Both the position numbers and the translations under genes were made by a program. 32,366 nucleotides of DNA, taken from sequence record PV340563; one strand, given 5' to 3'. The notes beneath the pieces are model-generated. The model saw only the letters and a list, made by a program, of their open reading frames with translations. It was not told the DNA's origin and made no database searches. Positions 21,174 through 23,933 of the stretch are shown piece after piece. The first letter of the stretch is position 1. Every line of letters starts with the position of its first letter. This DNA is from Escherichia phage PhiR44_1.

Positions 21174-23933
21174 ATGAGCACGAAATTTAAAACCGTTATC
21201 ACTACTGCCGGAGCCGCAAAGCTGGCTGCCGCCACTGTCCCCGGCGGGAAAAAAGTAAACCTGTCTGCAATGGCCGTGGGTGACGGTAATGGCAAATTAC
21301 CGGTGCCGGATGCCGGTCAGACGAAACTGGTGCATGAGGTCTGGCGTCACGCTCTGAATAAAGTCAGTGTGGATAATAAGAATAAAAACTATATTGTGGC
21401 TGAACTGGTTGTTCCGCCAGAAGTGGGCGGCTTCTGGATGCGTGAGCTTGGTCTGTATGACGATGCCGGAACACTGATTGCGGTATCCAACATGGCAGAA
21501 AGCTATAAGCCTGAACTCGCTGAAGGCTCCGGACGTGCGCAGACCTGCCGCATGGTTATTATTCTCAGCAACGTGGCGTCCGTTGAGCTGAGTATTGATG
21601 CCAGCACAGTGATGGCTACGCAGGATTACGTCGATGACAAAATCGCAGAGCATGAGCAGTCCCGCCGCCATCCTGACGCCACGCTGACAGAAAAAGGTTT
21701 TACTCAGTTAAGCAGTGCAACAAACAGCACCAGTGAAAAGCTGGCGGCAACGCCAAAAGCGGTCAAGGCTGCGAATGACAACGCAAATTCACGTCTGGCG
21801 AAAAATCAGAACGGTGCAGATATCCAGGATAAATCAGCTTTTCTGGACAATGTTGGCGTTACCAGCCTGACGTTTATGAAAAACAATGGCGAAATGCCGC
21901 TTGATGCTGATCTGAATACGTTTGGTCCTGTTAAGGCTTATTCAGGTATCTGGTCTAAAGCAACATCCACCAACGCAACACTGGAGAAAAATTTCCCGGA
22001 AGATAATGCTGTCGGTGTGCTTGAGGTTTTTGCTGCCGGCAATTTTGCAGGTACGCAACGCTTTACCACGAGAGACGGCAATGTATACATGCGTAAACTC
22101 GCCAATAAGTGGAATGGCACTGATGGTCCGTGGGGCGTATGGCGTCACACTCAATCTGCTACCCGCCCTTTGAGTACGACTATAGACCTGAATACGCTTG
22201 GAGCCGCCGAGCATCTTGGTTTATGGCGTAACAGTAGCTCAGCTATAGCTTCATATGAACGCAATTATCCAGAGGAAGGCGGCTTTGCTCAGGGGATGCT
22301 TGAGATCCTCGAAGGCGGAAATTATGGAAGAACGCAACGTTATACCACTCGCCGTGGAAATATGTATGTCCGCTGTCTTGCGGCAAGCTGGGATGCATCA
22401 AATCCGCAGTGGGAACCGTGGTTAAGAGTCGGTCATCAGTCAGAGAGTCGTTATTACGAAGGTGATTTAAATGTTCTAACCGACCCCGGTATTTACAGTG
22501 TTACAGGAAAGGCAACAAACGGTCCGATGCTGGACACCGTTGGCGCGACACTACTTGGGATACTGGAAGTAATCAGACGTTTTGATGGTGTGTCTGTCTG
22601 GCAGCGTTACACAACCACAGGGAAATCAGAAACCACACAGGGACGCACTTTTGAGCGCGCCTACGCCGGGAGCAAATGGACCGAATGGCGAGAAGTATAT
22701 AACTCCTTTTCGTTGCCTCTGAATCTGGGCATCGGTGGCGCAGTGGCAAAACTATCCAGTCTGGACTGGCAGACCTACGATTTTGTGCCGGGCAGTCTGA
22801 TAACCGTGCGGCTTGATAACATGACCAACATTCCCGACGGTATGGACTGGGGCGTCATTGATGGCAACCTGATAAACATCGCAGTTGGTCCGAGTGATGA
22901 TTCCGGTACGGGGCGCTCAATGCATGTATGGCGCAGCACTGTAAGTAAAGCGAACTACCGCTTTTTTATGGTGCGTATTTCAGGAAATCCGGGAAGCCGC
23001 ACGATCACAGCAAGACGAGTACCAATCATTGACGAAGCCCAGACATGGGGCGCGAAACAGACATTCAGTGCTGGCCTTTCTGGTGAACTGTCCGGCAATG
23101 CGGCGACAGCAACAAAGCTGAAAACAGCCCGTAAAATTAATAACGTTTCGTTTGATGGAACATCAGATATTAACTTGACGCCGAAAAATATTGGTGCATT
23201 TGCTTCAGGAAAAACAGGAGACACCGTTGCGAATGATAAAGCCGTTGGGTGGAACTGGAGTAGCGGAGCCTATAACGCAACTACTGGTGGGGCATCAACG
23301 TTAATTCTTCATTTTAATATCGGTGAAGGAAGTTGTCCCGCCGCCCAGTTCCGCGTTAATTATAAGAACGGCGGTATTTTTTATCGTTCTGCTCGTGACG
23401 GTTACGGATTCGAGGCTGACTGGTCTGAGTTTTATACCACAACGCGAAAACCTACAGCGGGAGATGTCGGTGCACTGCCGTTATCTGGTGGTCAATTGAA
23501 TGGTGCTCTGGGTATAGGAACATCCAGTGCTCTTGGCGGTAATTCGATTGTTTTGGGTGATAATGACACGGGCTTTAAACAAAATGGTGATGGTAATCTG
23601 GATGTTTATGCTAATAGCGTCCATATTATGCGCTTTGTCTCGGGAAGTATTCAAAGTAATAAAACCATAAATATTACGGGGCGTGTTAATCCCTCGGATT
23701 ACGGTAACTTTGATTCCCGCTATGTCCGGGATATCCGGCTTGGTGGTGCTGCCACATACAAACCTGCGAACAATGGCATGACATGGACACATCAGGCACC
23801 GTCCGGGTGTGTATATTCCGGCATTATTGTTCAGGATACCGGCTCAAACTCTGCCGATAACATTGGTGGTGTATATTACAGGCCGGTTCAGAAATACATT
23901 AACGGGACATGGTATAACGTGGCGCAGGTATAA
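21174..23933 (+). CDS. H: Tail fibre protein H (extended variant with internal repeats)
   Basis: 919 aa, against 669 aa recalled for P2 H. The N-terminal region looks P2 H-like; the central region has three roughly 80-aa repeats each beginning DLN(T/V); the C-terminus is distinct. Confidence 0.88.
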   Translation: MSTKFKTVITTAGAAKLAAATVPGGKKVNLSAMAVGDGNGKLPVPDAGQTKLVHEVWRHALNKVSVDNKNKNYIVAELVVPPEVGGFWMRELGLYDDAGTLIAVSNMAESYKPELAEGSGRAQTCRMVIILSNVASVELSIDASTVMATQDYVDDKIAEHEQSRRHPDATLTEKGFTQLSSATNSTSEKLAATPKAVKAANDNANSRLAKNQNGADIQDKSAFLDNVGVTSLTFMKNNGEMPLDADLNTFGPVKAYSGIWSKATSTNATLEKNFPEDNAVGVLEVFAAGNFAGTQRFTTRDGNVYMRKLANKWNGTDGPWGVWRHTQSATRPLSTTIDLNTLGAAEHLGLWRNSSSAIASYERNYPEEGGFAQGMLEILEGGNYGRTQRYTTRRGNMYVRCLAASWDASNPQWEPWLRVGHQSESRYYEGDLNVLTDPGIYSVTGKATNGPMLDTVGATLLGILEVIRRFDGVSVWQRYTTTGKSETTQGRTFERAYAGSKWTEWREVYNSFSLPLNLGIGGAVAKLSSLDWQTYDFVPGSLITVRLDNMTNIPDGMDWGVIDGNLINIAVGPSDDSGTGRSMHVWRSTVSKANYRFFMVRISGNPGSRTITARRVPIIDEAQTWGAKQTFSAGLSGELSGNAATATKLKTARKINNVSFDGTSDINLTPKNIGAFASGKTGDTVANDKAVGWNWSSGAYNATTGGASTLILHFNIGEGSCPAAQFRVNYKNGGIFYRSARDGYGFEADWSEFYTTTRKPTAGDVGALPLSGGQLNGALGIGTSSALGGNSIVLGDNDTGFKQNGDGNLDVYANSVHIMRFVSGSIQSNKTINITGRVNPSDYGNFDSRYVRDIRLGGAATYKPANNGMTWTHQAPSGCVYSGIIVQDTGSNSADNIGGVYYRPVQKYINGTWYNVAQV

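Follow-up and report, generated by a model that had tools for sequence, protein, structure and literature searches.

Among the described relatives of the tail fibre considered here is gpH of the plague-diagnostic, P2-like Yersinia phage L-413C (NC_004745, 913 amino acids, aa), which is presented in PMC7460101, citing Garcia et al. 2008, as a mosaic with 207 N-terminal and 137 C-terminal P2-like residues and a foreign middle. Fused to a fluorescent protein, L-413C GpH binds Yersinia pestis cells, and the host ranges of L-413C and P2 differ (PMC7460101). On Y. pestis, L-413C and P2 vir1 need the same terminal N-acetylglucosamine (GlcNAc) of the lipopolysaccharide (LPS) core (PMC3182234). The R1 and R2 pyocin fibres of Pseudomonas aeruginosa (6CL5, 6CL6, 6CU2) carry a pair of knobs ahead of a shaft that contains iron and a lectin-like foot, and among phage fibres the pyocin knob is recognised as a pseudo-domain that is mobile (PMC12143355). 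In pyocins, diversity is highest in Knob2, which has bound ligand mimics and was proposed to bind LPS; a knob-like prism of K1F binds sialic acid, and Buth et al. stressed the role of the multi-core knob in folding (PMC6116203). Here we analyse gene H in a stretch of 32,366 nucleotides (nt) from Escherichia phage PhiR44_1 (record PV340563; the whole stretch is referred to as the window). Gene H is the tail fibre gene of a P2-like (Peduovirus) Escherichia coli prophage in its L-413C-type form, and its three tandem modules, which profile comparisons assign to the pyocin-type knobs, arrived as a pre-formed cassette within a foreign block.

Gene H is an uninterrupted open reading frame (ORF) at 21174..23933 on the + strand, encoding 919 aa. 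BLASTP against L-413C H gives one alignment (1-919 vs 1-913, 77% identity, 10 gaps), so that the two proteins are collinear, with three knobs in the same positions. Residues 1-200 are 100% identical and residues 651-850 about 99% identical, and in both phages a 175-aa G chaperone follows. In contrast, knob 1 and knob 3 are each 45% identical, a segment of about 110 aa 71%, the tip 41% and the first half of G 68%; since these parts diverge, the host specificity may differ from that of L-413C. The same allele is found in Peduovirus P24E6b and Escherichia phages D8 and 12W (99.6% nt identity over 2760 bases), together with the same flanking genes, including a 197-aa ORF downstream of G. The exact H protein occurs on 87 contigs in NCBI. 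The gene order V-W-J-I-H-G is that of the P2 and P24E6b annotations, and H has the position of gpH, upstream of the sheath gene FI and with the Caudo_TAP chaperone gene G directly downstream. The window H is a member of the gpH family by position and anchor, yet not a P2-type allele.

The surroundings of the gene, which resemble a bacterial chromosome and include an integrase at 122-1132, and the many database relatives that are fragments could be taken as signs of a decaying prophage remnant with a non-functional fibre. The 919-aa ORF is uninterrupted, however, its neighbours V, W, J, I and G are intact, and besides the 99.6% identity to the P24E6b, D8 and 12W genes there is 97-98% nt identity over 92% of the gene H length to phages that plate on Y. 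pestis. Decay is thus hardly credible. We predict that gene H is functional, because near-identical genes are found in phages deposited as isolates and the G chaperone gene is intact.

Residues 239-514 of H consist of three adjoining modules of 92, 93 and 91 aa (R1, R2 and R3). The first-pass annotation of this DNA, made from the letters alone, had described three tandem repeats of about 80 aa. Three related modules are indeed present, but their size was underestimated, as the DLN motifs, with starts at aa 246, 338 and 431, recur every 92-93 aa. Between R1 and R2 there is 43% identity over 80 aa (E=8e-24; Smith-Waterman z=30.7, 500 shuffles), the pairwise similarity of R3 to R1 or R2 is weak (Smith-Waterman z of 2.3-2.5 against shuffles), and overall the modules are 27-43% identical to each other in protein. 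In the three-way alignment the invariant columns are D-L-N, G-x-L-E, Q-R-x-T-T, R and W-x-x-W; they agree with the motif pattern that had been read by eye, except that R3 has F in place of the Y that precedes R. At the DNA level, the only repeat within 21888-22715 links R1 and R2, with 52 nt that are 73% identical, and none was found for R3. Because there is almost no DNA similarity among them, we conclude that the three modules are old.

Pfam holds no model for the modules (60 instances tested), and no NCBIfam model matched the H protein or any module. The homologue search returned E. coli fragments labelled "pyocin knob domain-containing protein" by NCBI, a label that we used as a lead only and then tested independently. 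A three-module profile, searched against 1.84 billion cluster representatives at a threshold of E<=0.001, recovered 458 proteins, with 1-6 matched stretches each among the 150 matches listed. We aligned 57 non-redundant module instances with the three modules of the window (60 sequences, alignment A3). The resulting profile matched pyocin Knob2 over positions 3-81 of 85, in 6cl6 (R2 pyocin, E=3.2e-17), 6cl5 (R1 pyocin, E=2.1e-15) and 6ct8 (E=1.2e-13), with a weak second stretch on pyocin Knob1; the P68 tail fibre was also matched. When the window rows were removed, the family profile still recovered R1 (3e-24), R2 (1e-21) and R3 (1e-18), and it found three domains at the same coordinates in L-413C H and no domain in P2 H. 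A profile of R1/R2-like instances alone scored R3 at 38 bits, one of R3-like instances alone scored Knob2 of the R2 pyocin at 51 bits, and the R1/R2-type and R3-type sub-profiles gave pyocin Knob2 43-55 bits. Since these cross-profiles agree, R3 is a true, though divergent, knob.

We obtained an AlphaFold2 monomer model of aa 226-679 from a shallow alignment of 24 sequences. Across the three modules its predicted local distance difference test (pLDDT) values are 70-85 (about 70-83 in knob 1), with 5-6 strands in each module. As modelled, each module has the knob fold, a domain of about 85 aa with an antiparallel 5-6-stranded beta-sheet and long loops. The best Foldseek match of the model is the R1 pyocin fibre (E=3.5e-7), and the structural alignments to pyocin fibres have low pairwise identity (13-16%). 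Three adjacent copies in a tail fibre also agree with the occurrence of knobs singly or in tandem within receptor-binding fibres. From the sequence profiles, then, the modules are classified as pyocin-type knob domains.

The P2 H protein (NC_001895, NP_046775) has 669 aa, so the first-pass figure of about 250 additional residues was right, the excess of the window H being exactly 250 aa. Together with three tandem homologous modules of a regular 92-93 aa period, this figure is what would be expected if a P2 H-like ancestor had gained about 250 residues in this lineage by tandem duplication of one internal module. The alignment with P2 H is of a different kind. By BLASTP, aa 1-207 are 84% identical to P2 H, and aa 770-919 match its residues 472-669 at 39%, in an alignment that has large gaps and is nearly identical over the last 17 or so residues; no P2 H counterpart was found by BLASTP for aa 208-769, so the two proteins are not collinear over their whole length. 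DNA homology with P2 stops at window position 21779 and reappears at 23528-23617 and from 23879 on, and there is no DNA similarity to P2 within 21780-23527. In effect, 562 aa of H stand in place of 264 aa of P2 H. P2 H offers no knob that could have been duplicated, the modules are nearly without DNA similarity to each other, and the same ordered R1-R2-R3 cassette recurs in many unrelated fibres. For these three reasons we regard repeat expansion in situ as refuted and leave it next to no probability. The extra length is the replacement of a P2 segment by a foreign block rather than an expansion within the P2 H framework, and the knobs arrived as a pre-formed R1-R2-R3 cassette. Otherwise the two loci share their gene order, their G chaperone (74% identical to P2 G) and a homologous distal shaft and tip, whereas P2 H has a second PF03406-like repeat, its own 264-aa middle and about 50-60 extra residues in its distal part.

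The recurrence of the cassette elsewhere indicates how such fibres are assembled. Adjacent three-knob runs are most often in R1-R2-R3 order (15 runs among the 149 representatives listed), and some of the R1-R2-R3 proteins end in Gp34_trimer, Peptidase_S74 or Phage_tail_C_2. The 456-aa block at aa 215-670 is 93% identical to aa 514-966 of an 1181-aa fibre encoded on plasmid unnamed3 of E. coli ETEC1701 (NZ_CP122941, 96.6 kb; locus L008, 3399-6944). This fibre has the three knobs, the segment of about 110 aa and the linker in common with the window H, whereas its N- and C-termini are unrelated and its assembly protein is different. The neighbouring holin, lysis and transglycosylase genes suggest that the plasmid is a P1-like phage-plasmid. 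In a prophage of E. coli CRKP-1, H shares aa 1-673 with the window H and then continues with a different C-terminus and chaperone. The blocks common to the plasmid fibre and to CRKP-1 H thus end at aa 670-673, next to a junction (aa 626-671) with the conserved motif ...ATKLKTARKINNVSFDGTSDI..., which is common to many otherwise unrelated fibres (alignment A4). These two fibres, together with block boundaries at about aa 207-215, 670 and 850, strongly support the modular shuffling that had been proposed from the sequence.

The cassette is widespread in E. coli. At a coverage of at least 80% it is present in 349 of 5426 complete genomes, and the P2-type H middle region is present in 369 of them. 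Plasmids carry 35 of the 464 cassette matches in E. coli. Two of the cluster representatives matched (P0036, 1300 aa; P0050, 1182 aa) have two triple-knob cassettes, hence six knobs, followed by a Phage_tail_C_2 domain. As some fibres carry six knobs, knob copy number varies between fibre families and not within this lineage. The features of gene H and its chaperone gene in the window are as follows.

21174..23933, + strand: gene H, tail fibre of 919 aa, L-413C type (intact ORF, gene order, relatives)
21174..21653, + strand: N-terminal tail-collar fibre domain, aa 1-160, presumably for attachment to the baseplate (PF12571, match to aa 1-151, E=3e-57)
21681..21806, + strand: single Phage_fiber_2 repeat, aa 170-211 (PF03406, E=1e-20)
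21888..22163, + strand: knob domain 1, aa 239-330 (self-excluded family profile, E=3e-24)
22164..22442, + strand: knob domain 2, aa 331-423 (self-excluded profile, E=1e-21; 43% identical to knob 1)
22443..22715, + strand: knob domain 3, divergent subtype, aa 424-514 (self-excluded profile, E=1e-18)
22716..23048, + strand: segment of about 110 aa in the exchangeable block, aa 515-625 (accompanies the knobs in the plasmid fibre)
23049..23186, + strand: linker with the conserved fibre motif ...SGNAATATKLKTARKINNVSFDGTSDINL..., block junction, aa 626-671 (alignment A4)
23187..23477, + strand: Mu S/S'-like domain, aa 672-768 (8ju3_A match)
23481..23723, + strand: conserved distal shaft, aa 770-850 (BLASTP, homologous to P2 H from residue 472 onward)
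23724..23930, + strand: distal tip, aa 851-919, swappable, putative receptor-binding end (variation pattern, 9cuy and 5yvq matches)
23937..24464, + strand: gene G, tail-fibre assembly chaperone of 175 aa (PF02413 Caudo_TAP, E=3e-34; phrog_136)

We compared H domain by domain with six relatives (L-413C, P24E6b, P22H1, 720R8, vB_YpM_50 and 569R9). The anchor (aa 1-160) is 98-100% identical across them, and the Mu S'-like domain with the distal shaft is 96-100% identical (99-100% for the Mu S'-like domain alone). Knob 1 and knob 3 each range from 45 to 99% identity, and knob 2, the least variable of the three, from 71 to 100%. The tip (aa 851-919) is either 100% or about 40% identical. The variation is thus concentrated in knob 1, knob 3 and the last 69 residues. 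In relatives with an identical H tip the first 90 aa of G are 98-100% identical, against 68-69% in those with a different tip; because this stretch of G co-varies with the 69 C-terminal residues of H, it is suggested that the tip and part of G are exchanged as one unit. In the window, the tip and the first half of G occupy 23724-24206, and the C-terminal half of G stays at least 86% identical across the six relatives. Megablast matches in vB_YpM_50, vB_YpM_22, P24B2 and 569R9 end at query base 2552.

The C-terminal third had been described as rich in Gly, Ser and Asn. This enrichment is real and modest, with 31.6% Gly+Ser+Asn after residue 600 vs 20-25% upstream; in P2 H 472-669 the value is 28%. 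The accompanying statement that the distal part differs from that of P2 was half right, as aa 208-769 are without a P2 counterpart whereas aa 770-919 align at 39%, with the last 17 or so residues near-identical. The distal domains are homologous to those of the solved Mu S/S' fibres (8JU3, 5YVQ) and of the phiTE short tail fibre (9CUY), in aa 672-768 and in the tip (aa 836-918). The whole-sequence match to 8ju3 has E=3e-69, and its best stretch aligns aa 672-768 with residues 321-417 of 8ju3_A (167.6 bits, 78 of 97 residues or 80% identical). The C-terminus of the phiTE short tail fibre 9cuy (E=2.5e-18, 68.9 bits; PMC11972413) and that of Mu S in 5yvq (E=2.7e-28) both match the tip. The Mu S chains 5yvq and 8ju3 additionally match the Phage_fiber_2 repeat region, at residues 110-176. 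Pfam gp37_C matches aa 679-754 at 23.9 bits vs a threshold of 22.5, and the distal shaft has a weak gp37_trimer match. Mu S is unlike the window fibre in having no knob cassette, and no sign of an invertible segment was seen at the window H. In terms of domain composition, the window fibre differs from the pyocin fibres in its three knobs, its segment of about 110 aa, its Mu S'-like domain and its tip of the Mu S/phiTE kind.

Residues 515-625 have no sequence match in Pfam, NCBIfam or the PDB. A distant homologue of this segment (33% identity) is present in an otherwise different fibre (P0204). The AlphaFold2 model has pLDDT values of 26-40 across aa 509-654 and is unusable there, and the homologue search with these residues returned mostly E. 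coli fragments of little diversity. By-eye motif likeness had raised the possibility of a fourth, degenerate knob in aa 515-625; it was rejected, since hhalign gave it a probability of 0.06% and the hidden Markov model search found nothing. For the Mu S'-like domain at aa 672-768, kinship with the knobs was likewise rejected, at an hhalign probability of 1.1%.

Domain identities, block boundaries, cassette distribution and the pattern of variation are observations, and they define a fibre of four blocks. We give a probability of roughly 0.75 to the reading that H forms a homotrimeric long tail fibre of the L-413C type, built from four exchangeable blocks, in which the knobs aid folding, add length and make sugar contacts and the tip binds the receptor. 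The first block, the P2-like N-terminal anchor (aa 1 to about 207), would attach the fibre to the baseplate. The second is the 456-aa block (aa 215-670) with three knobs and the segment of about 110 aa, standing in place of the P2 H shaft. The third comprises the Mu S/S'-like domain and the conserved distal shaft (aa 672-850), and the fourth is the 69-aa tip, which is paired with chaperone G, encoded downstream. If the R-type pyocins (PMC6116203) are taken as a model, each knob would be a small beta-sheet domain of which three copies pack round the fibre axis, with the sheets at the axis and the loops outward, so that the knobs would help the trimer to fold, lengthen it and present variable loops towards the cell surface. 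Binding of the primary receptor (the LPS core in L-413C and P2) most likely falls to the tip, which G would help to fold, and the variable knobs 1 and 3 probably contribute secondary contacts with sugars, through which host range is tuned. For trimer geometry and sugar binding the pyocin structures serve as the model, and for the primary receptor the relatives, by which it is probably the LPS core.

Several points weigh against this reading. In the 24-sequence alignment, loop variability, measured as column entropy, is not significantly above that of strands (Mann-Whitney p=0.26), so that it is the per-domain identity differences that have to carry the argument for surface diversification. The knob pLDDT values are just 70-85, in a monomer model from that same alignment, and aa 509-654 are left unmodelled. 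The LPS core as receptor is an extrapolation from relatives, as the tip is only about 40% identical to that of L-413C. Finally, L-413C and P2 share their Y. pestis receptor despite very different middles (PMC3182234), and for this reason the knobs may not set the primary receptor. The first-pass proposal of a receptor specificity different from that of P2 is accordingly not established, and it is one that sequence cannot decide.

The shared receptor is also what one would expect if the knobs were purely structural, that is, trimerisation nuclei and rigid spacers that set length and geometry, with all specificity residing in the last 70-150 or so residues and G. L-413C and P2 vir1 need the same LPS-core GlcNAc and only L-413C has knobs (PMC3182234), the host ranges of P88 and pro147 were mapped to C-terminal residues 716-746 (PMC5285337), and the tip is a discrete swappable unit that co-varies with G. 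The lack of a loop-over-strand excess in variability and the emphasis of Buth et al. on the folding role of the multi-core knob (PMC6116203) point in the same direction. It would be unexpected for a spacer, however, that knob 1 and knob 3 fall to 45% identity between flanks that are 96-100% identical, while knob 2 and the Mu S'-like domain are conserved; moreover, the diversity of pyocin Knob2, its binding of ligand mimics and the sialic acid binding of the K1F prism (PMC6116203) speak for contacts with sugars. We consider purely structural knobs possible, with the odds somewhat against them.

A stronger version of the four-block reading, which we hold to be rather unlikely, is that the fibre reads its receptor at two levels, the three knobs being independent glycan-binding sites (e.g. 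for O-antigen or outer-core variants) that work with the tip. If that were true, knob 1 and knob 3 alleles would retune host range while leaving the tip-chaperone pair untouched, and the 456-aa block would be a host-range cassette traded between P2-like prophages and E. coli phage-like plasmids.

As for the rest of the window, the integrase (Int_N and Phage_integrase domains) lies at its left end, and the joint presence of integrase, gpA, baseplate, fibre and tail genes indicates that a P2-like prophage is contained in the window for the most part or completely. Directly after the replication gene A (3594-5909) there is a cargo of low GC content (35-39%) at 5919-9069. It comprises a C5 cytosine DNA methyltransferase gene at 5919-7070 (+ strand) and, convergent to it, the gene of a 652-aa protein with a GHKL ATPase domain at 7111-9069 (- strand), which matches type II restriction-enzyme models of PADLOC (E=3e-91). 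This cargo looks like a restriction-modification system in a P2 variable region. Between G and FI, in the fun(Z) slot of P2, lies the 197-aa ORF (24686-25279, about 36% GC). It has no Pfam or PADLOC match, matches phrog_3829 (function unknown) end to end and appears in the P24E6b annotation as a hypothetical gene; lysogenic conversion or defence may be its role.

The finding is correct but ordinary, in that the allele, mosaic fibres, mobile knobs and the hybrid fibre of L-413C are already known, and it leaves current understanding unchanged. It matters mostly as a correct annotation, with the modules named as pyocin-type knobs, as their profiles indicate, and recognised as a pre-formed cassette. 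Since 349 complete E. coli genomes carry the triple-knob cassette vs 369 with the P2-type middle region, P2 H is not the sole common reference allele for P2-like prophages of E. coli. The block map (anchor, knob block, Mu S'-like block, tip with G) may help in the engineering of P2-, L-413C- or pyocin-based particles, and it may also help host-range prediction.

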